Shown here one piece after another: positions 1 through 32,000 of a stretch of DNA of 32,000 nucleotides. The notes under the pieces were generated by a model. That model was given only the letters and a program-made list of their open reading frames with translations, had not been told where the DNA came from and ran no database searches. Position 1 is the first letter of the stretch. Each line of letters begins with the position of its first letter. Position numbers and translations under genes: made by a program. Source of the stretch: Candidatus Omnitrophota bacterium (GTDB lineage: Bacteria > Omnitrophota > Gorgyraeia > Zapsychrales > JANLHA01). Location: the NCBI GenBank assembly GCA_963662715.1, contig OY759724.1, forward strand, positions 1,230,001 to 1,262,000, in the 5' to 3' direction.

Positions 1-860
1 AGACGAAGTATTCATAACCGCGGACCTGGCTGAGCGTCTTGCCGTCGTTATAAGAATACTGCAGGACAGGCAAGACCTTATCGGCGTCTGTTCCGAACAC
101 TTCGGCGATGCTTGACTTGATATCCTCCGGATTGACAATCAGGCGGATCTCTGTTTCATCGGTATACGGCTCGGCCCAGCCTCTCGCCAGCAATTTCTCT
201 GAAATTTCTTCCCAGTCAAGGCCTTCTTCTCTCTCGACCTGCTGCTGTGTCAGGACCTGCGGATCGACGATCTTGACCGTCATCTGCTCACCTCTTCCGC
301 CGGTCAGGATGAACTTCCGGCCGTCATTGCCCAGGACATCTCTCCGGTAATAATCTTCCTCCTCGGTCGGAGAACGGAAAACCCGGACTTCTTTCAAGCC
401 GTTGCCGTCCTTGAACACGATCGTTCCCGGATTGATTCCGACTCTCAGATCAACTTCAATATCTTCCCCGTTATTGACCTTGAGCTTGTGTCCTTCCAGC
501 CACAGGACATTAATACCGAAATCTTTGTTGGCATAAAGCGTGGCGATATCGCGGCCGCGGCTGTCATTCGGAGTCAGGTAATGGTAAAGCTGCTTACCTG
601 TCTTGTCCGGATTATATCGCGGCCGGCCCAGCAGAGGCAGGAGCGTCTTGGCATCCGCACCGAACACTTCCGTCATCTCCGCTCTCACGTCATTCAGGTT
701 GACGATCAGGTGAATCTCCTCAAGGCCTGTGCGCTGAGCCCACCCGTTGTGGAGCAGTTTTTCGGAGACATCGCTCCAGTCAAGCTCGGCTCTCTCGATC
801 TGATTTTTGGTCAGATAACCGTTCTCAAGGATAACCGGTGTTTCCTCAACGATATCAAAC
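1..860 (-). repeat. Diverged tandem duplication of a ~188-aa module (period about 565 bp); the second copy runs off the window
   Basis: ELDWSDVSEKLLHNGWAQRTGLEEIHLIVNLNDVRAEMTEVFGADAKTLLPLL (about 795-640) matches GLDWEEISEKLLARGWAEPYTDETEIRLIVNPEDIKSSIAEVFGTDADKVLPVL (about 230-75). Confidence 0.7.
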
Positions 861-12800: not shown

Positions 12801-15800
12801 AATGCTTCTGTCGGATCAATGCGATATTTATCTCTTGTCATTAAGGAAATCACTTTCTGGCGATCGGAAGACGGCGCAATACAGATTTCCATATGGACAT
12901 GGGCGACCGTTGTTTCGGCATTACCTGTTTTACCCGAGAGGGCAAAGACTTCACCCGCTTCAACTTTATCTCCTTCTTCGACCTCGTAATCATTCAAGTG
13001 GAAGAAGATAAAGAAGACTTTATCGCCGCCCGCCACTGTTTCATCGGATTCGATGAAGACGGTCTTTCCTGCTTTCTCAGACGCAGGATTGGTATGGATA
13101 ACCCGTCCGGAAACCGGCGACTTCAATTCCACGTCTTCCGGCAGTAATATATCGATTCCGCCGTGACCATTGACGGACCCGATTCTATAAGTTCCGAATC
13201 TTCCGTCTCCCTTGGAATCCCGTCCGCGGAGGACCCCGGCAGCGATCATTTCATCTTCAATAGCCGCGTTGTTCTCGAGTCTCTCTGTTGTTTCCGGAAC
13301 GTCCCTGCCTTCCACTCCCGGTTCTTCGGCCACTTTTCTTCTCAGGTCTTCTGTAATCTCACCCTCAGCAATCTTATTGCTGATGTGGACTAACGATTGC
13401 GGTGTCAACTCAAAGTCATCCCGGTCGTCACCGCTGAGCTGGAATGCTTCCTGGAAGAAGGCGATATCCTGTTCATCTAAGTCATCCCATTTGGCCTTAT
13501 CTTCAACAACGGCATCAATAAGAGCTTTGGACAGATATTGTTCTAAGGATTCTCTGTTAGCTTCCACCAGCAACAATGCCAGTTGACGATCGCGTTTTTC
13601 TTTCATATCGGCCAGGAGCTGAAGCTGCAACTGTTCTGCGCTGAGATTGATCAATTCTTTTTCTGAAACATTTTCATCCTTCAGTTTTTCTCTCGTGGCT
13701 GTTATGGCTTCTTCCGCTTGGGCCACGGCATCTTCATCCGAAAGCTCTGCGTCAAAAGTCTTGGCTCTGGCCGCTAATTCGTATACGGCAATATCTTTTT
13801 CTCCACCCATAATGTTCTGATAGACCCAGTTGCTGGCGCGTATTCCAGCTGCATCTTCGACACTATCCAGACCATGCTGAGCCCAGTTAATCGCACCATA
13901 CTGACCTTCAAGAGCTTCGGCCAAATTGTAGATCGGTTTACCCACAACGCCTAAGATCGGGTGTTCAGCCAAGGCCTTGCTGCCGCCCATAACCGCGTCA
14001 ATTTCAATTCCGATCAAGGACATATGCCACAAGCTGCTTAAGAACTTGCCGCCTTCTAAGAGCCATTGAGCGAAATAGGATGTCTTGGCTTTTTCAGTTA
14101 AATCTTTATTAGCTTCCTGCATCAGGTTAACGAAGAAATCAAAATCAAATTTTCTCGTATTATTCATCAGGAAGACCGGGAGATATCCGAGATAGAAGAC
14201 CGTCGCCAGCGGCACACCTAACCAGAAGCCGGTTAAGGCCTTGCCTAATGCTAAGGCCCGGTTCATGATGCTTCGTCCCTGCGGCGCGGCAACCTTGGTT
14301 TCGGCCTCTAACATTTTCTTCAGGGCCGGCCGGCCTTCAGCCGTTACAGTTCCGTCGGCGATCAATTCCTTGATAAGAATTTCTGTCTTCTCATTAGCTT
14401 TCTTGCCCTCTGCCGGATGCATCAAGCCGTACAAGTAGCGGGCAGATGTCGAGGCGATATTAACACCTTGTTTCTTCCTGGCCCGGATATACATAAGATG
14501 TTTGGCTGTATCAAGAACACTCATGAATCTCAAGCCAAGCACCGTAATCATTAATTTGACAAGTTCGGGCACGGATAACGGCAAGCCTAAAGCGTTGGAT
14601 GCGACAACATCCATACCGAATATCGAGATAACGAGAGCGTGGCCGATAACGCCGGAAATGAGAAGCATGGTGCCTCGGCTGACCGCAAAGCGTACGATAC
14701 CAAACGGAACCGGGAAGGCGGAGACCAGCCAAGCCAATAACTTCTGTCGACCATATGTCCAGGTCTTGCGGATACTGCCTATTTTTTCAGTCGCTAATTC
14801 TTCTCTGAGGATCTCGGTCTCTGCTTCAACACTCTTCCTCTTCTGCGCATCCATGGTTCCGTCTTTGTATTCCTTGACGAATTCAGCAAAATCAATAGAT
14901 TTCATGATGTATTCCCAGAAGAAGTTCCAGACCACTTTGACCAGGTAAGGTGCCAGGTATCCGAAGATGGCGCCTTTAGCCACGGAAATCCAGAAAGCTG
15001 TTGTTGCTACTGCTGTTAAAGTAAGCGGCATGAACAGGGCGCCGACAACCGCCCCTGCTGCCAGTGAAACGAGGGCAATCTTTGTCTTATTCTTGTCGAA
15101 GATCCTTAACATGCTGCCGATTAATGAGGACGGCTTCGGAGCATATGTCTGGGAATGTATGATTCTCAACGCCTGGCGTTCGAGCAAGCTGACGCCGCCC
15201 AGGACACCGTAAGTTAAGGAGGCATCTTTTCCAGCCTTAAGATTACTGACGTCCTTCACAAACAGGGCCAAACCGGCCATAATTAGCGATGATACGCCGA
15301 AAATGGCTATAAGCGACCCAGCCATCGTTGGAACGAGGGCAATACCGGCAGCGGCTATTCCAGCGTGAATTAATAATTTGAAGACATTGTAGACATCGCG
15401 CTTTTGCAGCGGTCTGGTGAACAAATCTCTTAAGTTACTCCAAATACCAGGTTTGACTGGACTGGAGACATTGCCGGTCTCATGACTTGAAATCTCTGTT
15501 TCTTCTCCCTTAACCGGACTGGAGACCGAGGTGTCCTCTACAGAAGCCCGTACGGGCGAACTGGCCACAGGAAGCTCGGCCGCCGTGATATTGGCTTGCG
15601 GGCTTAAGTATGTAATTCCGCGGTAAATACCTTGCGGATACCCTGTCGGTAACATCTGATCCGTGAATCTGATGACCATAGATCCACGTTTTACGGCCTG
15701 CTGCCCAGCTGTCGCTATACTGCCTGTTCCGATCTTGCTGATCATGTGTTCAGCAAAGAATCTAGTATTGTTTTCTTCTGCGTCGCCGCTTCCCTCTCCG

Positions 15801-18800
15801 CCGGCCGAAATTTCGAAGACGATCTTTGTTCTCATGCTTTCCAGCAGTCTGCCTAAGTCCACTATCGGATTCAGGAGAGCGCTAAGAAGTCTTTCTGTCT
15901 GTCTCTTATTGTCTTGATATGTCTTTGTTAAGAGATAATAGTAGAACCCTGTCTGCTCTTTATAGGTTTCTGAGATACGGCTTAATTGCTTAATAAACTC
16001 ATCTTGTTTCTCAAAGCCTCTATTGACACCGGAATCAAAGACGGCCTTCAAGCCATACAAGGCCGTTGTGCTTTCCTCTCCGGCATTTCTGTCGATGGAC
16101 GTGATCAGGTCAGCCAATTGTTCTCTGCTTGTGCTTCTGTACAACTTCGAAGCAAACATTCTTCTGAAGAGGTAATCTCTTGCTCCCCTTGCTGCTCTTC
16201 TGTAATTTTCAGCCGTGCTGAGCGCTGTCCAGGCCGCCGTCAGGTGCTCAACCGTCTTCCTGTAATCTCTGGCCATGAACTCTTTGACCTTGCCAGGTAC
16301 ACTTCTGAGCGCTGTCCAGGCCGCCGTCAGGTGCTCAACCGTCTTCCTGTAATCTCTGGCCATGAACTCTTTGACCTTGCCAGGTACACTTCTGAGCGCT
16401 GTCCAGGCCGCCGTCAGGTGCTCAACCGTCTTCCTGTAATCTCTGGCCATGAACTCTTTGACCTTGCCAGGTACGCTTCTGAGCGCTGTCCAGGCTGCCG
16501 TCAGGTGCTCAACCGTCTTCCTGTAATCTCTGGCCATGAACTCTTTGACCTTGCCAGGTACACTTCTGAGCGCTGTCCAGGCTGCCGTCAGGTGCTCAAC
16601 CGTCTTCCTGTAATCTCTGGCCATGAACTCTTTGACCTTGCCAGGTACACTTCTGAGCGCTGTCCAGGCTGCCGTCAGGTGCTCAACTGTCTTCTTGTAA
16701 TCTCTGGCCATGAACTCTTTGACCTTGCCAGGTACGCTTCTGAGCGCTGTCCAGGCTGCCGTCAGGTGCTCAACCGTCTTCCTGTAATCTCTGGCCATGA
16801 ACTCTTTGACCTTGCCAGGTACGCTTCTGAGCGCTGTCCAGGCCGCCGTCAGGTGCTCAACCGTCTTCCTGTAATCTCTGGCCATGAACTCTTTGACCTT
16901 GCCAGGTACGCTTCTGAGCGCTGTCCAGGCTGCCGTCAGGTGCTCAACCGTCTTCCTGTAATCTCTGGCCATGAACTCTTTGACCTTGCCAGGTACACTT
17001 CTGAGCGCTGTCCAGGCTGCCGTCAGGTGCTCAACCGTCTTCCTGTAATCTCTGGCCATGAACTCTTTGACCTTGCCAGGTACACTTCTGAGCGCTGTCC
17101 AGGTCGCCGTCAGGTGCTCAACCGTCTTCCTGTAATCTCTGGCCATGAACTCTTTGACCTTGCCAGGTACACTTCTGAGCGCTGTCCAGGCTGCCGTCAG
17201 GTGCTCAACCGTCTTCCTGTAATCTCTGGCCATGAACTCTTTGACCTTGCCAGGTACACTTCTGAGCGCTGTCCAGGCTGCCGTCAGGTGCTCAACCGTC
17301 TTCCTGTAATCTCTGGCCATGAACTCTTTGACCTTGCCAGGTACACTTCTGAGCGCTGTCCAGGCTGCCGTCAGGTGCTCAACCGTCTTCCTGTAATCTC
17401 TGGCCATGAACTCTTTGACCTTGCCAGGTACGCTTCTGAGCGCTGTCCAGGCCGCCGTCAGGTGCTCAACCGTCTTCCTGTAATCTCTGGCCATGAACTC
17501 TTTGACCTTGCCAGGTACGCTTCTGAGCGCTGTCCAGGCCGCCGTCAGGTGCTCAACCGTCTTCCTGTAATCTCTGGCCATGAACTCTTTGACCTTGCCA
17601 GGTACACTTCTGAGCGCTGTCCAGGCTGCCGTCAGGTGCTCAACCGTCTTCCTGTAATCTCTGGCCATGAACTCTTTGACCTTGCCAGGTACGCTTCTGA
17701 GCGCTGTCCAGGCTGCCGTCAGGTGCTCAACCGTCTTCCTGTAATCTCTGGCCATGAACTCTTTGACCTTGCCAAGTACGCTTCTGAGCGCTGTCCAGGC
17801 TGCCGTCAGGTGCTCAACCGTCTTCCTGTAATCTCTGGCCATGAACTCTTTGACCTTGCCAGGTACGTTTCTGAGCGCTGTCCAGGCCGCCGTCAGGTGC
17901 TCAACCGTCTTCCTGTAATCTCTGGCCATGAACTCTTTGACCTTGCCAGGTACGCTTCTGAGCGCTGTCCAGGCCGCCGTCAGGTGTTCAACCGTCTTCC
18001 TGTAATCTCTGGCCATGAACTCTTTGACCTTGCCAGCTTTAATGCTTACAGCCTCAACAGTGCTGTCAACCATCTCTTTCACGCCACCTCGTTTGATGAA
18101 GTTATAAACCCTTGCGCCCAACATCAAGCCAGGAATAATGAGAAGGACTGGCCAAACGGCACCAACCGTTGTCGCAACAACTGGTACGGTCTTTGCCACA
18201 ACCGGCAAGCCGACTGTCAGACCTTTACCTAATCCATAGGAAACAATGAGGTAGAGTATCGCAGATTTGATGGTTCCTGTTGCTGCAGCTCTGAACATAT
18301 TTCTATAGGTTACAGCACTAAAGACCGAACGGAAGAACCTCGCCGTACTCGCTCCGAATGTCTTTACGGCTTCGCCCATCTGTCTTGCTTTCTTTGCCGC
18401 TCTCTGATATCTCTTGTAGGACTTGGAAAGCAGGATATCTTCAATAACTTCTTTATCTTTACCCGCTAATAATTGGGCTAATTCATCGTTATTATCGAGT
18501 TTCAAGCGTCTCAATAATTTTTCTGTTTCACCGAGATTTCTTTCTATCGGTGAAGAGGAGGCAGAAGCTGTAACGGATTCGCGGCCAGAGGCGGAAAGAA
18601 CAACCTTCTCTCCCACCTCTGGTGTTTGAGATAATGCATATCTGCCTCCCTTAGTTGAGATTTCTGCGTGATCCTGTTCTGTAAATCGGAACTGTTCTAT
18701 TCTGGATCGCACTGGAGAGGATGCCTCGAACATGGTTGTACTCGGCTGCGCTGGTAAGCTCAACCCAAGTTGCTTTAAGGCCGTTACGGCGGTAAATCCG

Positions 18801-21800
18801 GCCTTTATGGTTGAAGATGAGGTATAAATGAGTTCTTCCTGTCTTCTCTCTGGCAGTGCCGAAGATACAGTCGCAACGCTGGATCTCAACGAGATGTTTG
18901 AATTCGATGTCTGGTAATTGATTGGTTTGCGTGTTGATAAGGACCATAATGTACCTCCTGTGGTTAATTGAATTGCTTGTGTATTTGTTCTATCAAATGA
19001 AGAACCCTGACCGGTAATATCTGCACGAATGGCAGCCATACCAGACAGGGTTCGTTTTGTATGGGATATAAGTGAAGCAACAGATCCTATATTTGCAGCT
19101 CTTGGTGCAACTTCATATCTGAGCTTCAATAAGGTAAGATTTGTCCTTATAGAGACATATGTGTCATATATGCCTTTAGTAATGACACAAATAGCTTTGG
19201 CGAGATTTTCTCGCTTAAAGACTTGAGTTAAGAGTTTTACTCTCTTGAGGGACTTTGATACAACTAACGATACGAGTGGCGTGCTAACTGGAATAGCAGC
19301 AGCCAATAGTTTCTCAACACCTAATGAACCTTCCCAAGCCATTCTAGACAGCCCAGAAATAGTTCTTGTAGTGTTTCTCTTTTCGCCTGTACCAGTTGCC
19401 TCGTTCTGATCCGCAGCTCTATCTGTTACAACCGCTACATCCTGAGTAAACTCTGCCTTGTCAGAACCTCTACCCGTTGTTACAGCAATAACCGCCTGAG
19501 CGATTCTCAGATCAAATTCATCCGCTAAAGCTTTATCCTCAGCAGCGCTTACCTTTATACCTACAGGCAACACTCTGAGAACTCTTCTTAACACATCTTC
19601 AGAACCACTTATCACCTCGATCGCTTTCGCAATCCAAGCTCTCAGCAATTCTGCGATACTGCTAAGCACACCTTCAGCAGATTCTTCGTACGCTTCTACA
19701 GTACTTACAGCCTGACCAGTCACCTGACCAAACCGTATACCTAAGGCTTTATTCTCAGTCACATCCATTACTGGCTGTACTCTGAGAATTCCACTGGAAA
19801 CAGCTTTTACTGATCCAGGCACAACTTCAGTTCCTGTTATCAGTACACCATCACCAGCAACCCTAGCTTCTGCTCGTACTGCATTCGCATAGCTAATCAC
19901 TTGACCGATTACTCGACCAAGCTTCACAAAGGCTTTTGCCTCAGCAAGACTTACTGTTTCTTCAACAGCTTGTTCACTGAGAACCTTATCAGATACAATA
20001 TTCGAACTGCTTACACCTTCGATTACTTGCGCAACCTTAGACTTCAGCAATCCTTCTACTATACCTTCACTTCTTACAGAGCGGTTTACTACAGTTACAA
20101 CGCGGTTAGCCTGAGCGATTCTCAGATCAAGTTCATCCGCTAAGGCTCTATCCTCAGCAGCGCTTACCTTTATACCTACAGGCAACACCCTGAGAACTCT
20201 TCTTAACACATCTTCAGAACCACTTATCACCTCGATCGCTTTCGCAATCCAGGCTCTCAGCAATTCTGCGATACTGCTAAGCACACCTTCAGCAGATTCT
20301 TCGTACGCTTCTACAGTACTTACAGCCTGACCAGTCACCTGACCAAACCGTATACCTAAGGCTTTATTCTCAGTCACATCCATTACTGGCTGTACTCTGA
20401 GAATTCCACTGGAAACAGCTTTTACTGATCCAGGCACAACTTCAGTTCCTGTTATCAGTACACCATCACCAGCAACCCTAGCTTCTGCTCGTACTGCATT
20501 CGCATAGCTAATCACTTGACCGATTACTCGACCAAGCTTCACAAAGGCTTTTGCCTCAGCAAGACTTACTGTTTCTTCAACAGCTTGTTCACTGAGAACC
20601 TTATCAGATACAATATTCGAACTGCTTACACCTTCGATTACTTGCGCAACCTTAGACTTCAGCAATCCTTCTACTATACCTTCACTTCTTACAGAGCGGT
20701 TTACTACAGTTACAACGCGGTTAGCCTGAGCGATTCTCAGATCAAGTTCATCCGCTAAAGCTTTATCCTCAGCAGCGCTTACCTTTATACCTACAGGCAA
20801 CACCCTGAGAACTCTTCTTAACACATCTTCAGAACCACTTATCACCTCGATCGCTTTCGCAATCCAGGCTCTCAGCAATTCTGCGATACTGCTAAGCACA
20901 CCTTCAGCAGATTCTTCGTACGCTTCTACAGTACTTACAGCCTGACCAATTTCACTACCTAAGACCGTATCCCTGACAGCTTCACTTATACCACTTGAAG
21001 CCACTTCAGGAACATCTTCTAATATAGTCAAGGCATTTACAGCTCTTTCAGTTGTTTTCACAACATCAGAACCTTCATAAACCTCAACCACACTAGCATC
21101 TTCGACAGTTACTGCACCTACTGTCTTAGCATACACGGCTTGAGCATCATCTCGTTCAAGCTTTTGTTCAAAGGCATTATCCTCAGCAGCACCTACTTCT
21201 ATATAAGCAGATACCTTGAGAACATGACCATACAGAATCTTTGCACCGCTTATTGCTTCAACATCGCGCAACTGCTTCACAGCAACTAACGATACCTGAT
21301 CTCTTCCAGCCATACCATTGATACTTCCAACATACGCAACATCAGCAGCCTTGCTTACAGCAGACATATAGTCTACATCAAAGGCTTTACCCTCAGCACA
21401 TAAGCCACTACTGGCCAACACACTCAGGATACGATTTGTGAATACGTTATTCAGCACATTCTCATTACTGAGGACGGCTACAACATATCCATCAAACCTT
21501 ACACCCCTGACAAAGCTTACTTCAGTAACAATGTCAGCATGATCAATTACTTGACCAAGTATACCAAAGGCATCTAACTCAGCCTCACCGGATACATCAT
21601 CAGCGAATACTCTGAGTTTTCCACTGTACAGAGAATCAGCACCGCTTATTGCTTCAGCCACACTTACAGCATCCACATTAAGCCATACACTGAATCCGCT
21701 AGTACTACCTTTAACAGAACGTGATACAACTCTTCCAACACCAACAACGGAAACAGTTTGATCGCTTACACGACCATACTCATTGCTGATTGCACTAGAC

Positions 21801-24800
21801 ACACCAAATACATCACTTGATTGTGTACTAGCCTTCTCATCATTAGACACAGCATTCGATTCGCTTCCAAGCGTTGATACACCTTCATCATCACTTGTAG
21901 TCGTATCTTCAACAACGCTAACGATAAGTACAGAGCGATTAGTCCATTTGCTGCCGTACGTTCTAAGGATCGTTACAACACGATTCGTATACTGCTTCAA
22001 CCAAGCACTAACTTTCATCAGGGCCGATCTAACAGCCACGAATATTCCTTCAGCTACCTTGAATGGCTCTTCAAGGTTGTAGCTGGCTGTAGGCACAGCT
22101 TCCGGTAATGTACTTCTTCTAGACCCGTTACCAGACTCAGATCTAGCAATTCCCTGAATCAATCCGGACAATAGAGCCATAACTGCCTTGGCTATGCCTC
22201 CGAAGAGTATAGACCAATCAATTGCAGCTATACCACTAATACCAGATGTTCTCAAAGAACCGGCATTGGCGTATGTTCCACCTACACCTCTCGTGTTAAC
22301 GCCTCCACGATTGGCGCTCACCCATCGAGTCTCTAACTCATCCTCGGCTTTTTGTGTTGCTGCCGAGAGAACTGTACTACTCGTCTCAACATTGACGATT
22401 GCACTGCTTACACCGTTCGCGTTATCGTCACCGCGACTGGCGTTTCTCACCCAATTAGTTTTTAACTCTGGTGTCACCGCTGTCGAAGCAGCCGTGATCA
22501 CACGAGCCGATTCAGCGATTGTACTGCTCACACCAGCAGCTACGCTAGTTCTGGTGGCGTGTTTCTCCCTTACTTCTGTCTTCGCCTCTGATGTGGCCGA
22601 TGCGACAACCACACGAGCCGATTCAGCGATTGTACTGCTCACACCAGCAGCTACGCTAGTTCTGGTGGCGTGTTTCTCCCTTACTTCTGTCTTCGCCTCT
22701 GATGTGGCCGATGCGACAACCACACGAGCCGATTCAGCGATTGTACTGCTCACACCAGCAGCTACGCTAGTTCTGGTGGCGTGTTTCTCCCTTACTTCTG
22801 TCTTCGCCTCTGATGTGGCCGATGCGACAACCACACGAGCCGATTCAGCGATTGTACTGCTCACACCAGCAGCTACGCTAGTTCTGGTGGCGTGTTTCTC
22901 CCTTACTTCTGTCTTCGCCTCTGATGTGGCCGATGCGACAACCACACGAGCCGATTCAGCGATTGTACTGCTCACACCAGCAGCTACGCTAGTTCTGGTG
23001 GCGTGTTTCTCCCTTACTTCTGTCTTCGCCTCTGATGTGGCCGATGCGACAACCACACGAGCCGATTCAGCGATTGTACTGCTCACACCAGCAGCTACGC
23101 TAGTTCTGGTGGCGTGTTTCTCCCTTACTTCTGTCTTCGCCTCTGATGTGGCCGATGCGACAACCACACGAGCCGATTCAGCGATTGTACTGCTCACACC
23201 AGCAGCTACGCTAGTTCTGGTGGCGTGTTTCTCCCTTACTTCTGTCTTCGCCTCTGATGTGGCCGATGCGACAACCACACGAGCCGATTCAGCGATTGTA
23301 CTGCTCACACCAGCAGCTACGCTAGTTCTGGTGGCGTGTTTCTCCCTTACTTCTGTCTTCGCCTCTGATGTGGCCGATGCGACAACCACACGAGCCGATT
23401 CAGCGATTGTACTGCTCACACCAGCAGTTACGCTAGTTCTGGTGGCGTGTTTCTCCCTTACTTCTGTCTTCGTCTCTGCTGTGGCTGATGCGACAACCAC
23501 ACGAGTCGATTCAACGATTGCACTGCTTACACCGTTCGCGTTATCGTCACCGCGATTGGCGTTTCTCACCCAATTAGTTTTTAACTCTGGTGTTACTGCT
23601 GTCGAAGCAGCCGTATTCACACCAACCTTTGCTATCGTTACAACATATTCAAGTCCTGTCCTCTCTTGAGCAGCTTTTCCTGCCTGAATGCCTGAGGAGG
23701 CATTGGCAGCGGCCCACGGCGTGGGACTAGAGCCAGAACTTCTAAAATTCTTTTTGGCTCCTTTGTCTATACTTAAATCTATGTGTTGCCGTTCTGCTTG
23801 CGGATCAACAATTGGTGCGCTGGCAACAGAAGCTTTATTAGCATTCATATTTCTGGCATAGGCGATAACCAAAGCTGTCTTGGCTTTTGCCGTTCCTGTA
23901 GCTCCGGCAGTTCCTCCGCCAGGAGCCGGCTCTTCAACAGGAGCAGGAGAACTAAACGGTGAACTTGTAATAGGAACACCTTTGGTTCCGCTATCCTTTC
24001 GGCCTTCTATAGGATTATGTTGATTGGACGGAAGAGACAACTTCCCAAGACTGAACGCTGCTATAGGCAATGCAGGGATAAATATTGGAGAAGACGGCAC
24101 AGCTTGCACAGGTAATTGCGGCGGTGCAACAGGCTCTGTAACAACAACTGGCGGTGCTAGCGGCTGTTCTTCCGGAGGCGCACGAGAAGCTTCCGTTAAT
24201 ACGGTTTCTTCCGGTTTAGAAAGGTCTTCCTGTTTAGCCACTTGCCCTGATACCTTATCCTGAATTGTTATCCCTGAAGCATCGGCAGGTTTCTCTGCTT
24301 GGGCCTTGTCCACTTTTGCCACTTCAATAACTTCTTCCTGGGCTCCTTCTTTAATTTCACTGCCGAACAAGAAGGCAAAGGCATCTTTAAGTTGTCCCCA
24401 CAAGCTCTCTGAGGACTCTTCGCCAACGAGAGCAACCAAATCTTCCTTAGTTTTAATTTTACGCAACTGATTAAGCGATTTTTCTAATATTGGATAGCCG
24501 TCTTCTGAAATTGTACGCTGTCCTTCCTGCTGTGCGGCATTGATAACAGCGTCCATCTCTTTGGCAAGCAACTGTCTTTCTGCCTGATCCTGAATTGACT
24601 GAGACATGACGGCCTTTATAACATCAAATGCTTTTCTGTTATCGACTGACAACTTCTCAATTTGCTGAATAACTGGTGAAGCCTGCGCAAGGCGCGGAAC
24701 CTCTGTAACCGTACCTGGTTGGTCTTTGGCTGTGGTAGAAGCTTTTGCAATTTCAACATATTTGGTTTGACTCTTTAACTTCTGACCATACGGAGTTCTT

Positions 24801-27800
24801 AATTCAGGCAAATTCATAGGGCTGGATAAAGCAACTATGATCGTTTCTGGAGTCTTTGATGGCGACTCGGACGGGAGATCTCCCGCGGATTCCTGAGTCG
24901 CTGATTCTGCCGGATTCATGATAATCATTGAAGACATCATCAGCAGACCACCAGATTTCACCTTTTGCTTTTGGGCTGCAATTCTTTTTGTTCTTGACGC
25001 CGTCCATTTCTGCTCCATAGCATTGGAAGGCAGATTCTGCGCCGGGGTCCTGGCTGGCTGAATCCTCACATAAGGTTTGGCAACTTGTGCAGGGGCAGAA
25101 GGACGAGTGATCTCTTGCTGTGTTGACTGAATAACCCGTGCATTCTTACTGGTCATCAACTCATCAACCGTAAATGACTTCACATTACCGTCTCTCATCT
25201 CCAGGCTGGCAAGTCTAACCTCCTGATCACTGCCAGGTGCCTTAAACTTAACCTGAGAAACGATCTTTCCAACCTCACTTATATTGTTTTGCCCGGACAA
25301 CTCTACCGTCTTACCCACCTGAGAAGGCTGCCCTTTAAATTCTTCTGTTATTATCGGACTGGCAACTGCAGCTAAAGCCATTTCTTCGCCAGCCGTGGCC
25401 GTCGTAGTAGTAGGACTAGGAAGAATGGCAGGAGGCATAGCAGCGGCTACGGATATTTCTTCTCTAGACGAAGCCGCCGACTCAACTTTTCCTCTGGAAG
25501 CAGCTGACGGCGTTTGAGCTAATAAGCCCATTGACGGCATAGTGGTCGCATCCATTCCAGGCAGCAATGGCAAGACTGTAGCCGGTGCGGCCGGAACAGC
25601 GGCTGGCGTTGATGCCGGCTGTTCAATAACAGTCGTTTCAGCCACCTGCTCTTTACGTGTTGTTATGCCTCGATCAATCGCAATATCAAACTGATACTGT
25701 TCAATATCCGACTTGCGGGTCGAAGCGACAACAATTTGCTCACCCGTCAAAGTTGTATACAGAATAGGGATGTCTTTCAGCTTGAATTGATCTTTTTCTA
25801 TTGACTTAAGGTCTCTGGCGAGGATCTTTCCAACCTTATTCGTCACGGCGACAACAAAGACGCCAAAAGCATCTTTAACCTCTAATTCCCTGGCTTGAGA
25901 TTCTTCAATAAATGCCCTGTACATACCCAAAGGATCGGAAATGCTCAAGTTATGCTTCCTGGCTTCGGCTATTCTCTGGTTCTGTGTCGCGACGTACTCC
26001 GGACCTATAATCAAGTAGGTCTGGCCTTTATTGTTCTTAATGATCCTGATTCCCTTAGGTTCAACGAAATAATTAAAATCATCGATCTTCACAAAGTCAA
26101 TTTGAATGTTCTCTTCCATCGCCAACTGTCTTGTCAAGGCTTCTAAATAATCTCCCATACTAAAGTCGGCGCCAGGAATGATATTGTCAAAGTCAACACG
26201 TTTATCAAATCTTACTGGTTTAAATACCGGTTTCTCGTTATCCACACTAACCATGACCATCTTTTCAGAATAGATCAATTGATTTCCGTTTACCGGCACG
26301 GCCAATTCCATTTCCTCGTCAAATTTAGCCCAAGCCAAATATCGAGTATTTCCTAAATGAACGGAAACCGGCAGCCATTTCTCTCCAGATGTTTTATCAA
26401 GGTATATATCCGCTGTTTTATCTGCCTCTATCAAGTATAAATTCCTGCGCTGGATATCACTCAATCCGGCAATAATCCGGCCTACTTCTATAATATTCAC
26501 GCCCTTGAATTCCATCTGCTGACGTCTCACCCGCCCTGTAGCATCGACGAACCGGACAAAATTCTTTTCGATATAGGCCCTGTCCCCGTCAGGCAAGCGA
26601 ACGACTGTAACCGCTTCCGGATCAATTCGATTTCGAGCAATAGTCTCAGCCCGCGTCTTCTCCATGGCTATAACAATATTTTCACGGCTGTCAACGATAA
26701 GGGACGTCGTTTCTATTTCTTTAGGATTATTTACCAAAGCTTGCGTCAACAATATTGTCTTTGGCTCCCCTCGCTTATTAATATCTGTTAACAAAATTTT
26801 TGCCGGAAGATTCATGTCTGAAGGAACAATCTGAATCCGGCTAATCTGTGATAAATCAGAAATATCAACCGATTTCGCCAAAGACACCAAAACACTCTCA
26901 ACCTGTTCTTGGGCGGAGAAATCACGTTTATCATAAGCAATCAATGTCGGGCTATCTGATTTGATCTGGCCTTCGGAGATTAAATCATGTTCTTTTAATA
27001 CCGCCCCAACGTCAACCGTACGATATTCTGAGCGTAAGGAATGGGAATACTTGCCTGTTTTCATGGCAATGGCGATACGATCTGTCTTTTCGATCTCCGG
27101 AATTTCTTTCTGTTCTCCCAAAATCGGATTAGAAACCACCCTGCGGAACGTCTCTTCCGGAATCAAAACAGTTCTGGTGTTCTCTGTTTCATCCGTAAGA
27201 TACAGTCTTGACTCCAAACCTTTACCCCGGATAATCTTAACGTGAGTTGTTCCTTCCTTGAACTCCGGATAGCTTCCCATAAGATCTAGGAGGCCCATCT
27301 TCTCAGAAACCGACAAATTGGCAGAATAGATAACCGAGGCATCTGATGCCTTTTCTTGGGTCAATGGGCTGGATAATGATGCTATCTCGAGGATTTCTCC
27401 CTGAACAAGCTGAAGTTTCTCGGTTGTCGGGAAAAGATGCTCGACCAGATCATTGTCCAAATAAGGCTTACGACCGACAATGTATTTTCTTAAATCTTCT
27501 GCTGACGGCTTCAAAGTCTGAGCATTCCCCAAGAGAACAACAGGGAAGTTACGCGGTAACTGATCAAACGGCAGTCTTTCTGATATAATTTCTCCATCCA
27601 AGCTCTTGTGATAAGCCACAAACGGTGTTTTTCTTGCCGCTTGAAGGGTTTGCATCAAATTTCTTACCAAAACGATATCATAATCGTCCAATTGAGGAAC
27701 CGCTTTTAAGAGCTTGTCCAGCCTGTTAATCGTTGCGGGTTTCTCCATCATAAGCATGGATATCTGCTGAATCGAATCCTGGGATAAGCTCATTCCTAAT

Positions 27801-30800
27801 TGGGTGGTAATGCGTTCCACTTCCAGGGCTTCCAGCGTCGGGACATAGACATAAACCGGTCTTGAAGTGTCAGTGACTGTTTTACGCGCCGAGGCTAACA
27901 ATTCAGGAAGAGTCTTATCTTCTTCAAAAAGAACAACCGATTTATTGGCATCATGAGCTAATCTCACTTTTTCTTCTAACGAAGCAGCCTTCTGGTGAAT
28001 TGTACCGCTTGTAATATCCCAGAAAGATAAATTCTCCGATTCTATTTCTCTCTCCAAATCTTTCTCAGTCGGCTCATAATAACCGTCTATCGGGGATGAA
28101 CTTGCCTGTGCCAAATCTGTAGCCGCAGAAGTTGAAACTTCTCTATTCGCCATAGGGCCGCCGCTAAAGGCAGGCAAAAGAATCGGTGCAGACAAAACAG
28201 GTAACGGCGCCGTAAGAGGAGCACTCACCGGTAATTCCACGGCCTGTTCCGGAGCCTTCGGAGACGGAAGGACATCCTCTCCTTCCGCGGAAGCGGCCTT
28301 TTTCATCTGTCCGCCGTGATCAACGACAGTGGCGGAAACCATCAACAATCCACCTTTTTTCTCCGGTTTTGGCATAGAAGCAAATTGAATCTCCGGTTTC
28401 GTAAGATTCAAATTACGCACAGGAGAAGGTGTCGGACGAATGCTGCTGCCGTCAATGGCATTAGAAGCAAGTTGTGTTAATCCCTGCTTTATTGTTTCCC
28501 CGGCAGACTTCTTCAACATTTCAGCTCTTATAGCTCCTGTCTTCTCTGCTGATTCAACGACAGGAGAGGACAATGTTGGGAATGTCGGGGCCGTGATCGT
28601 CGGAGCCACAGGGGCTGTTACAGACGGAGCTGCGACCATTTGCACCGGCTTTTCTGCAGACAGGGCTTGTGTCTGTGTTTCTTTAACAAGCGATGAAGAG
28701 ACAGACACCATGCCACCCGGCTGAGTCTGTGCAGCTTCAGGCTGCTTCAAAACAGATGAAGAGACAGTCATCATGCCGCCGGCTTGCGTTTCTGTCATGG
28801 TCATAGGCGACGGTTTAATCACCGACGAAGATACCTGCATCATGCCGCCCCGTTTTTCCGGTTTTGTCACCTGCTGACTTGTTTTAAGCGAAATGTCTCT
28901 GTTCCGGCTTGTTGTGTCGACCTTGGCAAGTTCCACCGGTTTGCTGCCCGGTAAAGCCGTTTCAAATGCTGGCAAGACCGCCGGGCTTGATATAGACGGA
29001 ACAGACGGAGCAACGGTTACAGGAGAAGCGGCAACAGCTGTTACCGGCTTCATTTCCGGTTTCTCAACAACAGATGAAGAAACTGTCATCATGCCGCCGG
29101 CTTGCGTTTCTGTCATAGTCATAGGCGACGGCTGAATAACCGACGAAGACACCTGCATCATGCCGCCGGCTTGCGTTTCTGTCATGGTCATAGGCGACGG
29201 CTGAATAACCGATGAAGACACCTGCATCATGCCGCCCGGCTGTGCTTGGGCCATAGCCACCGGCGACGGCTGAATAACCGACGAAGACACCTGCAGCATG
29301 CCACCACGTTTAGCCGGTTTCTTTGTGAATTGTATTTCTTCTCTAGATAAAGATCTCTGGCGTGAAGTTGTGTCAACTTTTGCCAGTTCCACAGTCTTTC
29401 TTCCTGGCTGAATATCTTTGCTTAACGGAGATGACGTCATAAGAGGCATCGGCATCGTCGTCGGAAGAGTAACAGCCGGGGCTTGCGGCGTCGCCACAAC
29501 AGGAGAAGCAGAAACCTCTACGGTTCTAGGTGCTTCAAGGGACGGAGCCTTAATGACAGCCGTCGAATCCTTCTTCACAACCGTTGAAGAAACGGTCATC
29601 AATCCGCCGGCCTGAGTTTCTGTCTTGGCCATAGGTGACGGCTTGATAACAGCAGACGATACCTGCATCATGCCGCCCGGCTGAGCTTGGGCCATAGCCA
29701 CCGGCGACGGCTTAATCACTGATGAAGACACCTGCATCATACCGCCTCGTCTGGAAATATTCTTAGGAGATAGAGCATAGCCCCGTTCCTGAGCTGTCAG
29801 CGGCATGGACCACCGTAACGGGCTGCTGGAACTGCTGCTGCCCTTCGGTTGAGACAAGGAGGCCAGCAAAGCTTCCTTAGCTTGTTTAGGAACATAGGCT
29901 TTTAACGGCGCGTTCATCTTCTGCGCCCAAATAATTCTATTATTGCCGTCGTACGCCGTTCCGTCACCGTTTAACGCCACGGGATCCTGCACCATAACGG
30001 CCATGATCGCCCTTTCTGTGCGATAAGGACTAAGGTTTGACATCTTCGGAGAAAGGTTCTGCACCTGCTCTGGAGTCAAGGTGACCAATTCGTCATATTT
30101 TGCCGGCGGCTGCACATCGAAAATAACTTCTCCCTGTGCCTGCGTCCTGATTTCAGAAGCAATCTGCGGATTCTCCTTCATTATTTCGGAAATCTTGGAA
30201 ACCAAGACAGCTTCTTGCGGCTGGGAAGCGGCGTTCATGGACCCCGTCAAAGCCCTGAGATCGGAATAATTGATATCTTTCGCATCTTTAGCAACAACAG
30301 AGGAAACTCTCTCCGGCAGTTCAATCGGAGAAGAAGAAGGCTTTTCTGTTAAGTCATAGGATTTCGCCATGAATTCACTGTTCGGCATTTCAACAAACTT
30401 CTTTAAAGCTTTTTCATAATCATGATCCAGGTCCCCCCGGTTTTCCACAACCATAACACCGAGGACCTTCTCCTCTTCAAGCACTCTGAAGACAACCCTT
30501 TGATTCCCCAGCCTGAGTTTATTAAGACCTTTTAAGGCCTGGTTGTATTCAAATTTAGACGGTTCCGGGCTCTCGAGGAAAGTTGTAAAGGAATCTGATA
30601 ATCTGCTTTGGACTTGATTGAGCTTGGCCTTCCTGACGTCCTTCAACACGCGGACAGTATAGCCTTTAACATTTACCGGCTGAGCGGCTGCGGCCACTTC
30701 GGCCGATGAAGAACCTTCAGTTCCTTCCCGTTTAGCGGCAAATTCTTTCTTTGACAGGCCCCAGCGCTGCAGATTATTCATAACCCGATGACGTGTCGAA

Positions 30801-32000
30801 CCTGTCATGCTCTGTGTGAGGTCAATCAAATCTTCATACAGCTTAACTTCACCCTGGTCTACAGAATCTTGAATTAAATCTTTGATATCATCAAAAGCCG
30901 CGCTTTCCTTGGCGTCCACAACAGCGCTGTCCGGAATCGGCATAATCTCCTGCTCCGGAGCGAGACTCTGTTCGGCAACCCGTAAAACCGGTTTAATTTC
31001 AGCATCAAATATTTCCTGTGCTTCTGACTTGGTGATCTTGGCAACGTCCGCCATGCGGGGCAGGGTAATATTAACATTATCGTCCTGCAATTTCACATAG
31101 GCGGCAGCCAAAGCCTGTCCTTTGGGAGAAATCCTTAAGGCATCGCCATACTGAACGACATCCTGAGGTGCTGATATGTAATTCTCTTGAATATAGGTCT
31201 TGGCCCTGGCCATTTCAGATCTGGCTTCAATGGATTTCTTCGGGCTGTTCTGGGTTTCACGGCTGTATGACAAGAGTAGATCAATAAACTTCTTAGGCTC
31301 AGTTCTTAAATCTGTCCGATCCAGTTCCTCCAGGATATCCGCTGCCTTAACGCTGACTCTTCCTCTGCCTTTGGTTAACTGAGCTTTAAACGGTTCGGCC
31401 TTCTTGACCGGACTGGACGTCGTGGCATTAACCACCGCGGATTGTGTCCCGTAATTCTCCGTGAGAATCTGCTGGAATTTAACCCGGTCGCTTGCGCGTA
31501 AAGAAATGATCTCATTACCGAATTTTTCAATCGTCTCAGCATCATCACTGTAAACCTTGACCCTGTTGCCGCGGGAAGTGACGGTAGGCGGAATACTCTG
31601 TTCCACTTTGGCTAATTTATCAACCGTAGGAATGAGTTCTCCGGCTGTCTGACCATCCAAATCAGAATCAACAACATTTGCCGTTAACCGGACCTTAGCA
31701 TCAACATCTATATTCTGATTAATTTCCTGCTCAACGGCATCAACGAAAGCCACAAAATCTTCTTCTTTTAAGTCGCGGTTAATGCCCTTGGGGATAACCA
31801 AATAGAAATTGTCCGGCGGGCCGCGAACCAAGCGCACGCCTCTGAGGTTTTGAGACTTTAATACTTTATTATAGGCTTCTGCCGAGGTCAGGATGACATT
31901 ATTCGCCAGTTCATGATCAGAGAATTCATTAATTACCTTAAATCCGAATTCCCCGTTATCATTTCCGCGCAAAGCATCGACAGTAAACTTGCCGGTGGCT
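1..32000 (-). CDS. Internal fragment of one giant ORF (10,666 complete codons, neither start nor stop in window). It encodes a multidomain membrane-associated protein with a peptidoglycan-hydrolase module and several in-frame tandem repeat arrays.
   Basis: The frame has codons at + coordinates 3n+2..3n+4, read from 31999 down to 2. I scanned the 60-nt lines by hand and found no tta/cta/tca (reverse complements of TAA/TAG/TGA) at a position equal to 2 mod 3. Interior copies of the three arrays were covered by the argument that their periods of 87, 111 and 615 bp are multiples of 3. The same frame gives canonical M23 and SLT motifs, hydrophobic helices and all the repeat peptides. None of the 12 minus-strand ORFs in the track is in this frame. 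The frame is missing from the track because it never closes. It reads ATGKFTVDALRGNDNGEFGFKVINEF at the 32000 end and NDGKTLSQVRGYEYFV at the 1 end. Confidence 0.92.
2440..2850 (-). other. Coiled-coil-like helical segment
   Basis: Translation gives AQAEEAQKEIEEYTERIRELEAEIAEIEERIAKETEERLAAEAAAV ... ALELQKKVLEERKRVAETQRGASEERLSGLSERIESM. Confidence 0.5.
4850..5950 (-). other. Beta-rich, aromatic-rich region with alternating polar/apolar strands (OMP-barrel-like character)
   Basis: Explicit translation of 5160->4862 gives TRYYALLGATYSWKTFSMSVDQAFGDSDRLSLRSNVGPFSGYYQRENDLETYGVQYSKKGISLGAFVNQYGDYGATASVRRNITKELEYEARYSTTGEP. Sequence of the same style continues upstream to about 5950. Confidence 0.35.
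5990..8060 (-). other. Alpha-helical / coiled-coil-rich region
   Basis: Long E/K/R/L/Q-rich stretches are present. Examples are QELEKQMVERDDDVVQQRLAAWKSFLQ, RRRELAETEAGLLREKQSLLRRSIELN and NLREANKLAEAEEDYEQLKLDAKRQVNAVADAANDYNDQLVALRQYL. No heptad analysis was run. Confidence 0.5.
11030..11290 (-). other. Domain: degenerate M23-like / barrel-sandwich domain lacking the metal-binding histidines
   Basis: Explicit translation gives RSYMDGTVISVEPGPFGEEIIIESETVEEGSGKTVKVQQIFGHLTGTNVNLVGQEIKAGTILGLAGTFRTETTAQSEYV. The M23 scaffold pattern is kept (G.V..V, Y/F.HL, V..G..V..G..IG..G). The HLHFE position reads SEYVFKL, and no HxxxD motif is seen upstream. Confidence 0.45.
12150..12560 (-). other. Domain: soluble lytic transglycosylase (SLT / GH23-like) within the giant ORF
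   Basis: Explicit translation of 12496->12422 gives ESRFKPRAVSRAGATGIMQIMPGTW, which contains the catalytic Glu-Ser and the GxxQ.MP.TW signature. Translation of 12240->12182 gives YTLAGYNAGPGYSAGYYPRV, which contains the AYNAGPG-type motif. Confidence 0.88.
12870..13200 (-). other. Domain: M23 (LytM/lysostaphin-type) zinc metallopeptidase, with catalytic motifs present
   Basis: Translation gives RIGSVNGHGGIDILLPEDVELKSPVSGRVIH...FFIFFHLNDYEVEEGDKVEAGEVFALSGKTGNAETTVAHVHMEI. The HxxxD motif (HGGID) has His at 13163-13165 and Asp at 13151-13153. The HxH motif (HVH) lies at 12893-12901. Confidence 0.82.
14160..15380 (-). other. Cluster of hydrophobic, predicted transmembrane helices (roughly 6-9 by eye)
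   Basis: Translated segments include LLIHAGIAAAGIALVPTMAGSLIAIFGVSSLIMAGLALFV, IALVSLAAGAVVGALFMPLTLTAVATTAFWI, AIFGYLAPYLVKVVWNFFW and LLAWLVSAFPVPFGIVRFAV. Further segments are MLLISGVIGHALVISIFGM and ALTGFWLGVPLATVFYLGYLPVFLM. The helices are separated by charged loops. Confidence 0.7.
16215..18036 (-). repeat. In-frame tandem repeat, 87 bp (29 aa) x about 21 copies; peptide unit GKVKEFMARDYRKTVEHLTAAWTALRSVP
   Basis: The period of 87 bp was counted directly. The antisense + ORF 15986..18232 shows 21 ERCPG..ARY(T/A)S units. Copies differ at only a few positions. Confidence 0.97.
18090..18290 (-). other. Hydrophobic helix pair (predicted TM hairpin) immediately N-terminal to the 29-aa repeat array
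   Basis: Translation gives FRAAATGTIKSAILYLIVSYGLGKGLTVGLPVVAKTVPVVATTVGAVWPVLLIIPGLMLGARVY. Confidence 0.6.
19475..20948 (-). repeat. In-frame tandem repeat, 615 bp (205 aa) x about 2.4 near-identical copies
   Basis: The identical 80-aa antisense ORFs at 19901..20143 and 20516..20758 are 615 bp apart. Copy junctions fall near 19475, 20090 and 20705, and the third copy diverges at about 20948. The unit peptide includes ...IGQAVSTVEAYEESAEGVLSSIAELLRAWIAKAIEVISGSEDVLRRVLRVLPVGIKVSAAEDKALADELDLRIAQANRVV.... Confidence 0.93.
20949..21700 (-). repeat. Diverged relatives of the 615-bp unit (degenerate repeats)
   Basis: The stretch 21175-21270 (ttatcctcagcagcacctacttctatataagcag...gcaccgcttattgcttcaac) is recognisably similar to ttatcctcagcagcgcttacctttatacctacagg...gaaccacttatcacctcgatcgc in the 615-bp unit. 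This was aligned by eye only. Confidence 0.45.
22386..23617 (-). repeat. In-frame tandem repeat, 111 bp (37 aa). Nine core copies lie at 22500-23498, eight of them apparently identical, bracketed by two diverged units of the same family.
   Basis: The string acacgagccg recurs at 22500, 22611 and so on, giving a period of 111. The core peptide is VVVASATSEAKTEVREKHATRTSVAAGVSSTIAESAR by explicit translation. The flanking units (22386-22495 and 23511-23617) are about 95 percent identical to each other. Both encode ...NWVRNANRGDDNANGVSSAIVES.... Confidence 0.95.
23870..24310 (-). other. P/A/S/T/G-rich low-complexity linker
   Basis: Translation includes SRAPPEEQPLAPPVVVTEPVAPPQLPVQAVPSSPIFIPALP and ITSSPFSSPAPVEEPAPGGGTAGATGTAKAKT. 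Confidence 0.7.
25370..25650 (-). other. P/A/T/S-rich low-complexity linker
   Basis: Translation includes IEQPASTPAAVPAAPATVLPLLPGMDATTMPSMGLLAQTPSAAS and AAAMPPAILPSPTTTTATAGEE. Confidence 0.7.
28690..29760 (-). repeat. Three clusters of 69-bp (23-aa) modules; unit peptide GGMMQVSSSVIQPSPMTMTETQA, separated by P/S/T/V-rich spacers
   Basis: The string ggcgacgg recurs at 29124 and 29193, giving a period of 69. Explicit translation of 29220->29102 gives SSSVIQPSPMTMTETQAGGMMQVSSSVIQPSPMTMTETQ. The clusters lie at about 29590-29760, 29060-29310 and 28690-28850. Confidence 0.85.

Follow-up and report, generated by a model that had tools for sequence, protein, structure and literature searches.

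The giant open reading frames (ORFs) of Omnitrophota encode proteins with many transmembrane helices, few annotated domains and cell-wall-degrading enzymes (10.1101/2023.11.21.568195; PMC10066038; 10.64898/2026.06.07.730766). West-Roberts et al. reported C39 and S8 peptidase domains in these giants and suspected that the proteins are cleaved, at points that are unknown (10.1101/2023.11.21.568195). Here we analysed a 32,000-nucleotide stretch of a Candidatus Omnitrophota genome (assembly GCA_963662715.1, contig OY759724.1, positions 1,230,001 to 1,262,000; hereafter the window), the minus strand of which encodes part of a giant protein, and a peptide motif that recurs in this protein, GG[ML][MLV]x[VM]S[SA]x[VIL] (hereafter the GG motif). 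We find that the motif marks a real, selected and lineage-restricted peptide module in a linker of an Omnitrophota-type giant protein, and that the evidence favours a β-strand pairing element over a protease cutting site.

A six-frame stop-to-stop scan and full translation yielded one stop-free minus-strand frame of 10,666 codons that is open at both ends.

2..31999, minus strand: single uninterrupted ORF, fragment of a giant multi-domain membrane protein (six-frame scan and translation)

Because the frame is open at both window ends, the gene exceeds the window; the ORF is a fragment of a longer giant multi-domain membrane protein, and its 10,666 amino acids (aa) are a lower bound. The original prediction, made from the DNA letters and a list of ORFs, had placed the motif in a giant protein; the frame is there, not as a bounded gene but as a single ORF filling the whole window and running past both ends. 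As in the 'Archaeovorin'-type giants of Omnitrophota, the stop-free ORF (>32 kb) contains several transmembrane-like segments and is mostly unannotated. It also resembles Omnitrophota giants in its peptidoglycan-degrading M23 and SLT domains and in the methyltransferase and other enzyme domains of its relatives. Of the two genomes nearest to it, one bears the label Candidatus Omnitrophota. Pfam searches found no C39 or S8 peptidase domain in the window (10,666 aa) or the two relatives (2 x 2,666 aa), and no SecA-like domain in the visible 10,666 aa, the N and C termini of the gene lying outside the window. A text search of two giant-protein preprints (10.1101/2023.11.21.568195; 10.64898/2026.06.07.730766) for wording on motifs, linkers and cleavage returned no description of the GG-MMQVSSSVI module or of the companion motif SSP[VIL] discussed below.

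The GG motif occurs 12 times in the window ORF, in clusters of three, four and three copies plus two single copies. Clustered copies start at aa 752, 775 and 798, at aa 899, 922, 945 and 968, and at aa 1051, 1074 and 1095 (window 29746-28685), which gives spacings of 23 and 23, of 23, 23 and 23, and of 23 and 21 aa. Minus-strand translation reproduced every peptide that the original prediction had quoted for ten clustered copies between 29760 and 28690, and the isolated copies that it had placed near 28330-28365 and 24925-24960 were found at aa 1216 and aa 2350. Its arrangement of 23-aa modules in three clusters holds apart from the one spacing of 21 aa, and the lead-in that it had put before every cluster stands, as VELAKVDTTSR..K(P)xKRGG, before clusters 2 and 3 only; cluster 1 follows MPLTAQERGYALSPKNISRRGG. 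GG is directly preceded by Q[PA] where the module is internal and by K[RK] where the copy is single or first in its cluster; farther upstream the sequence is variable. No copy arose in 300 shuffles of the whole protein, or in 5000 shuffles of the local 581-aa region that preserved its G/M/S/V-rich composition. In the following list, L001 and L021 are loci of the two related genomes and P0001 is a database fragment, all described below.

29576..29746, minus strand: cluster 1, three modules (aa 752, 775, 798), RRGGMMQVSSSVI / PGGMMQVSSAVI / AGGLMTVSSTVV (pattern; orthologous modules in L001 and L021)
29306..29398, minus strand: lead-in to cluster 2 (aa 868-898), TVELAKVDTTSRQRSLSREEIQFTKKPAKR (translation; partly kept as [KR]xVE[LMI]A[KS]...KPEKR in L001 and L021)
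29066..29305, minus strand: cluster 2, four modules (aa 899, 922, 945, 968) with a 23-aa period (pattern and DNA tandem repeat; Tandem Repeats Finder 29087-29302, period 69, 3.1 copies, 89% matches)
28850..28945, minus strand: lead-in to cluster 3 (aa 1019-1050), KPVELAKVDTTSRNRDISLKTSQQVTKPEKR (translation and alignment)
28685..28849, minus strand: cluster 3, three modules (aa 1051, 1074, 1095) (present in L001, absent from the L021-type fragment P0001)
28322..28354, minus strand: single copy KKGGLLMVSATVV (aa 1216), preceded by PEIQFASMPKPEK (orthologous copy PEMNFAAIPKPEKRGGMLTVSSTVI in L001 and P0001)
24920..24952, minus strand: single copy KSGGLLMMSSMII (aa 2350), within another low-complexity linker that spans aa ~2100-2450 (pattern)

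Relatives of this region are few. We scanned the GTDB species genomes with a degenerate DNA pattern that encodes GGxxxVSSSV and obtained 30 loci, with a chance expectation estimated at ~17 matches (18 specified bases in roughly 1.2e12 positions); 28 of the 30 were discarded as single chance matches in short or unrelated frames. The other two contained several matches in an ORF open across the whole 8-kb locus: L001 (CAZAXH010000003.1, labelled Planctomycetales) and L021 (JAKQKX010000073.1, labelled Candidatus Omnitrophota). Their proteins are collinear with aa 546-1320 of the window at 58-63% identity. L001 has the layout of the window, with 3 + 4 + 3 modules and a single copy (11 copies), and L021 shows the first two clusters (7 copies) up to the end of the locus; the distinctive third module of cluster 1, GGLMTVSSTVVK, stands at the same place in all three. 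Upstream, both relatives encode two GGDEF domains according to Pfam, and L021 alone adds a methyltransferase domain and a kinase-like (EcKL) match below the Pfam cut-off. L001 and L021 are ~95% identical in their shared globular domain despite their different labels, so at least one of the two taxonomic labels is doubtful.

The original prediction had proposed a profile of the module for scanning protein sets. Such a profile, built from three consecutive modules and run with HMMER against 1.84 billion representative proteins, gave one true match, P0001, a 226-aa fragment of the same gene from a 713-bp ENA contig (L039, ERZ795059); the further candidates P0002-P0007 proved to be unrelated repetitive proteins (eukaryotic zinc-finger and other repeats, for example). 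P0001 continues the L021-type sequence and runs from cluster 2 straight to an Ala/Pro-rich segment and a single copy, without cluster 3. Close relatives thus gain or lose whole clusters. Copy numbers are 12 in the window, 11 in L001 and 8 in the L021 lineage (7 in L021 plus the single copy in P0001), and the spacing ranges from 21 to 26 aa across copies.

Pfam and NCBIfam returned nothing over the motif region, nor did a profile search of the PDB with the module, which agrees with the original prediction, in which the motif was not recognised from any known family. Word-based protein homologue searches with aa 700-1240 and aa 200-760 gave no hit at E <= 0.001 among 8000 candidates each, a weak negative in that the same search missed P0001, a member of the collection searched. 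The pattern scan of viral contigs (IMG/VR) gave 0 matches, and an alignment-based search of JGI metagenome contigs found no relative; a two-module DNA pattern in the JGI metagenomes matched 8 times, all in one unrelated repeat element in a stop-filled frame. Phage and plasmid collections returned nothing for the motif region and, elsewhere in the ORF, only generic M23/SLT domain matches, on which ground we rejected a phage or plasmid origin. As far as these sequence collections reach, only a single orthologous group of giant genes, represented by three genomes and one fragment, carries the motif. Since the search of 1.84 billion proteins found only P0001, the motif is neither compositional noise nor a known family.

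Position by position, the 30 copies share G1 and G2 (30/30 each), S7 (30/30), S8 (29/30) and V6 (29/30), and with a single exception positions 3, 4, 10 and 11 hold hydrophobic residues; the sequence on either side of the motif varies. The codon comparison of the window with L001 separates the cores from their surroundings.

Motif cores: 120 codons; 52 identical, 43 synonymous, 25 non-synonymous; 79% aa identity
Between cores: 332 codons; 73 identical, 80 synonymous, 179 non-synonymous; 46% aa identity
Adjacent globular domain: 171 codons; 66 identical, 60 synonymous, 45 non-synonymous; 74% aa identity

The non-synonymous core changes that we inspected were mostly conservative (I/V, S/A). At every core position the third base varies among the 30 copies, within and between genomes, and the peptide stays fixed. 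Spacers, by contrast, look homogenised within each genome ('PSPMTMTETQA' in the window, 'RPSTQMETTQP' in L001), whereas the cores are common to the genomes. Core serines of the window are encoded by TCN only: AGY codons account for 0/32 of them, compared with 39% of serine codons gene-wide and 28% in the surrounding linker, and AGY is missing from all 30 copies. The identity of 79% in cores versus 46% between them, together with the many synonymous changes, therefore shows that selection acts on the peptide and not on a DNA or RNA element.

The sequence around the motif is poor in aromatic residues and of low complexity. All copies lie in two such stretches, aa ~720-1300 and aa ~2100-2450, in which P, A, S, T, Q and G (PASTQG) make up a fraction of 0.46-0.68 per 50-aa block.

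28100..29842, minus strand: low-complexity, aromatic-poor linker (aa ~720-1300) with 11/12 motif copies (PASTQG 0.46-0.64 per 50-aa block; 5 F, 1 W, 1 Y)

We modelled the region twice with AlphaFold2, both times from window sequence only and with low confidence, thereby following up a structure prediction of one cluster that had been suggested. A single-sequence model of aa 735-1130 had a mean predicted local distance difference test score (pLDDT) of 42.6, with the cores as short β-strands (pLDDT 50-62) and the rest below 50; for this model Foldseek listed nothing but β-solenoids (Ag43, bactofilin, pectate lyases), none of them a significant match (E >= 0.8). The second model, of cluster 2 with 5 window paralogues, had a mean pLDDT of 51.2 and no secondary structure, so the strands of the first model did not recur. 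The motif thus has the features of a short linear motif: a conserved island of at most 12 aa within poorly conserved, compositionally biased, low-pLDDT sequence. Each cluster is followed by a hydrophobic stretch rich in Ala, Pro and Val, for example AAPSVTAPVAPTITAPTFPTLSSPVV (window ~28560-28680, ~28960-29060 and ~29420-29570, minus strand; aa ~810-860, 980-1012 and 1110-1147), which is partly kept in L001 and L021 (ATPEAPAVTLP…SSPLS) and resembles a polyproline-II-type spacer.

The side of the membrane on which the motif lies can be approached from hydropathy. A simple Kyte-Doolittle scan, which is not a topology predictor, picked out ~10 hydrophobic stretches of 19 residues that average 1.6 or more. 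They lie at aa 3262, 4230 and 4603 and in a dense block at aa 5538-5945, which stands between the motif-bearing N-terminal part and the M23 and SLT cell-wall hydrolase domains downstream.

14165..15388, minus strand: main cluster of hydrophobic, transmembrane-like segments (aa ~5538-5945) (Kyte-Doolittle 19-residue scan)
12881..13168, minus strand: peptidase M23 domain (aa 6278-6373) (Pfam PF01551, E = 1e-18, two stretches)
12209..12526, minus strand: lytic transglycosylase SLT domain (aa 6492-6597) (Pfam PF01464, E = 3.5e-16; NCBIfam lytic-transglycosylase models)

The same scan found no transmembrane-grade segment before aa ~3260 in the window, nor between the GGDEF/methyltransferase domains of the relatives and their motif region. 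Because no such segment intervenes, the motif region is probably cytoplasmic, and the M23 domains probably lie on the opposite side of the membrane.

We rank first, with a probability of about 0.35, the reading that the GG motif is a multivalent β-strand 'sticker' for pairing or docking. The motif core would be the heart of a 21-26-aa 'sticker and spacer' module, in which a strand-forming segment of nine residues (hydrophobic, hydrophobic, x, V, S, S, small, V, hydrophobic) comes after an invariant Gly-Gly break and leads into a poorly conserved spacer of Pro, Ser, Met, Thr and Gln. Such modules would occupy the disordered linkers between domains in the N-terminal part of the giant membrane protein, which is probably cytoplasmic. 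Each core might pair as a β-strand with other cores, within or between chains, or with another domain, and the attachments of 8-12 copies could add up to a multivalent one by which the giant protein is organised or tethered at the membrane. Selection on the peptide, its near-invariant positions and the low-confidence, low-complexity context count in favour of this reading. Island-like conservation within disordered sequence, combined with a strand-like pattern that is hydrophobic at both ends, suggests a sticker; and the single copies, the variable spacing of 21-26 aa, the variable copy number and the loss of a cluster suggest elements that act additively and independently. On both faces the predicted strand has hydrophobic ends and small Ser or Ala in the centre; in our reading, such mixed faces resemble those of strands buried on both sides. 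Of the functions that the original prediction had offered, a putative binding motif fits best. A passive hinge is unlikely, since 11 residues of an entropic spacer would not stay near-invariant across paralogues and genomes. A processing site retains the invariant GG and fails on the features, considered below, of C39, the one GG-specific peptidase reported from this protein class.

Known repeat systems offer partial parallels. They include sticker-and-spacer repeats of disordered proteins, such as the cohesive FG repeats of nucleoporins, and the strand-loop-strand repeats of functional amyloids such as CsgA. Like these, the GG modules lie in aromatic-poor or low-complexity sequence, combine short β-prone or hydrophobic motifs at near-regular intervals with polar spacers rich in Pro, Ser, Thr and Gln, place a conserved Gly beside the sticky element and vary in copy number. 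Unlike these, they show no sequence similarity to either, their sticker is built of Met, Val and Ser rather than Phe-Gly or Gln/Asn, and there are 3-4 copies per cluster; self-association or amyloid formation of the GG modules would be by analogy. The PEVK segment of titin is likewise an unstructured part of a giant protein with a Pro-rich repeat module of ~23-28 aa. PEVK modules are conserved mainly in composition, whereas the 11-residue GG core is near-invariant, which argues for specific recognition over an entropic spring.

A second short motif accompanies the GG modules. SSP[VIL] occurs 13 times in the window against 0.5 expected, and 8 times against ~0.2 in each relative. Its sites (…VSSSPVE…, …LSSPLS…) extend over window 15463-31418 on the minus strand, for example at aa 195, 556, 725, 856, 1144, 1301, 1543, 2392, 2636, 4427, 4482, 5480, 5493 and 5512.

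28568..28579, minus strand: SSP[VIL] example at aa 1144, TLSSPVVES (positions conserved in L001 and L021)

SSP[VIL] keeps its positions between genomes and tends to sit between conserved blocks, and one copy trails each GG cluster by ~40-50 aa. It may be a module-junction signature of giant proteins, and as such may be of wider importance than the GG motif. The wider pattern SS[SATP][VIL] has 38 occurrences in aa 1-5530, where 3.6 are expected, and 0 in the C-terminal half. The window and L001 differ in sequence on the upstream side of the aa 195 junction. A further variant, G-VSS-[AT]-I (AGVSSTIAE, NGVSSAIVE, FGVSSAISN), is present in a 37-aa repeat and the sequence flanking it (window ~21800-23530, minus strand, aa 2824-3400), and it has the V-S-S-x-[VI] core in common with the GG motif and the VSSPV sites; this relation may be real or coincidental.

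Several observations weigh against the sticker reading. The comparative evidence is thin, with the motif in three genomes and one fragment only; the β-strand assignment is weak, because the second AlphaFold2 model lacks secondary structure; and both glycines are invariant, as would be expected of a GG-specific protease site. A small folded β-repeat domain would also be compatible with the near-regular spacing of 23-24 aa and with the cluster sizes common to the window and L001 (3, 4, 3, 1). The motifs would then be its rungs or hairpins, with a structural role instead of one in docking or cleavage; the domain could be a β-meander or a short β-solenoid of the curli type, built on a Met/Val core and ladders of Ser and Gln. 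Turns would fall at conserved Gly-Gly and Pro-Ser-Pro, the second half of the module alternates (MTMTETQ / MAMAQAQ), every core is a strand in the first model and the top Foldseek matches are all β-solenoids. However, those matches (E >= 0.8) stem from a model with a pLDDT of 42.6, and a repeat fold sits poorly with isolated single copies, conserved at aa 1216 and present at aa 2350, and with a whole cluster that the L021 lineage can dispense with. Three or four rungs per cluster would make a marginal solenoid, and no uninterrupted array of five or more units exists. We therefore consider a folded β-repeat domain unlikely.

A similarly low likelihood attaches to proteolytic processing, in which a Gly-Gly-specific peptidase would cut after GG and either split a giant polyprotein or free 23-aa peptides. 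The cutter might be an M23 Gly-Gly endopeptidase, a C39 domain that a different part of the giant gene encodes, or some other cysteine peptidase of clan CA/CE. Apart from GG itself (30/30 copies), this proposal can draw on the position of the sites within inter-domain linkers, on M23 domains in the same ORF and on K[RK]GG at first-of-cluster and single copies, which resembles the RGG-type sites of ubiquitin-like processing. With C39/PCAT double-glycine sites, which have GG or else GA or GS at -2/-1, the motif shares the invariant Gly-Gly and the probable cytoplasmic side, and C39 domains are reported from the protein class, as are S8 domains, with cleavage suspected (10.1101/2023.11.21.568195). 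The C39 enzymes, however, require a helical leader in which positions -4, -7 and -12 are hydrophobic, and tolerate any P′ sequence; in their substrates it is the leader side that is conserved, and what follows the cut varies (PMC6363468). In the 30 copies, position -4 is Q (19), K (10) or R (1), -7 is A, E, K, T, N or Q and -12 is mostly S (16) or P (5), none of the three ever being hydrophobic, and the Pro-rich upstream sequence disfavours a helix. Conservation is the reverse of that in C39 substrates, with nine near-invariant residues after GG and a varying upstream side, and the sites are internal and in tandem rather than in a single N-terminal leader. Moreover, cutting every 23 aa is unnecessary for separating domains, the searches of the window (10,666 aa) and of the relatives (2 x 2,666 aa) turned up no C39 or S8 domain, and the M23 domains lie past the transmembrane-like block, probably on the other side of the membrane. 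A more specific version, in which GG-MMQVSSSV[IV] and SSP[VIL] act as polyprotein 'punctuation' and a non-canonical, P′-reading Gly-Gly peptidase cuts the giant into separate proteins or 23-aa peptides, seems to us decidedly improbable.

Post-translational modification is, in our estimate, slightly more remote still. The invariant Ser-Ser would be phosphorylated or O-glycosylated, with GG and the hydrophobic flanks as recognition elements and SSP[VIL] and GVSS[AT]I as further sites. S7 and S8 are indeed the most invariant positions other than Gly, the excess of SS[SATP][VIL] (38 against 3.6) is confined to aa 1-5530, L021 has a sub-cut-off EcKL match and a methyltransferase upstream, and glycosyltransferases are reported from the giant-protein class (10.1101/2023.11.21.568195). 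Against this, no known sequon fits the motif, none of the modifying enzymes has a link to it, and the conservation of five hydrophobic positions plus GG goes beyond typical kinase or glycosyltransferase sequons. That the motif is compositional noise, or a nucleotide-level element (repeat DNA or RNA structure) translated by chance, is hardly credible: the region is of low complexity and part of cluster 2 is a 69-bp tandem DNA repeat, but local-composition shuffles never produced the motif, all core codons vary synonymously at the third position, and the 1.84 billion representative proteins hold the pattern in one fragment of the same gene only. The motif is thus not common in unrelated low-complexity proteins, as the original prediction would have expected of noise.

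Several other candidates were dropped. A type IV prepilin or class III signal peptide would need a hydrophobic helix of ~20 residues after a [KR]-G cleavage site, with Glu at +5 in bacteria; the motif has only nine semi-hydrophobic residues, then K/Q/E-P-S-P, and no Glu at +5. No transmembrane helix follows, as a GlyGly-CTERM/rhombosortase signal would need; and a Tat signal and a lipobox failed on sequence grounds. Internal translation starts at ATG-ATG do not fit repeats every 23 aa and substitutions by Leu or Val. Met-based Cu(I) binding was rejected on the replacement of Met by Leu in 5-7 of 30 copies and the lack of His or Asp.

Elsewhere in the ORF, Pfam found M23 and SLT only, plus a weak HAAS-like match within an array of 29-aa repeats, and M23 with SLT constitutes a peptidoglycan-degrading module as described for the giant proteins of predatory Omnitrophota. 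Sequence searches of the PDB, and of Pfam at low stringency, yielded no credible match to the domains on either side (aa 1-735, 1300-2110 and others); a likeness of 'YDGNNRIIWAQ' to ParB/Srx motifs had no Pfam support and was dropped. Only 3 of the 10,666 residues are Cys. Three tandem arrays lie at window 16218-18036 (87 bp x 20.9, 98% identity, 29-aa unit GKVKEFMARDYRKTVEHLTAAWTALRSVP), 22499-23533 (111 bp x 9.3, 99% identity, 37-aa unit) and 19494-21023 (615 bp x 3). These near-perfect arrays are recent expansions, since their identity is far above that of the GG modules. Two plus-strand ORFs, at 15986-18232 (748 aa) and 22188-23669 (493 aa), run exactly antisense to tandem arrays of the giant gene and are most likely artefacts of stop-free repeats, not genes.

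Omnitrophota giants are among the longest predicted polypeptides, and questions of interest are their processing, their membrane arrangement and the role of their unannotated parts. Coming from one narrow lineage, the GG motif is a useful lead into these questions rather than the discovery of a mechanism. Together with SSP[VIL], it provides sharply defined elements under purifying selection inside a fast-evolving linker. It also offers concrete targets, namely peptides for protease or binding assays such as TETQAGGMMQVSSSVIQ, search strings for semi-tryptic peptides and sites for mutagenesis. Were the punctuation reading to prove true, the motifs would be the first concrete cleavage points for this class of giant proteins.

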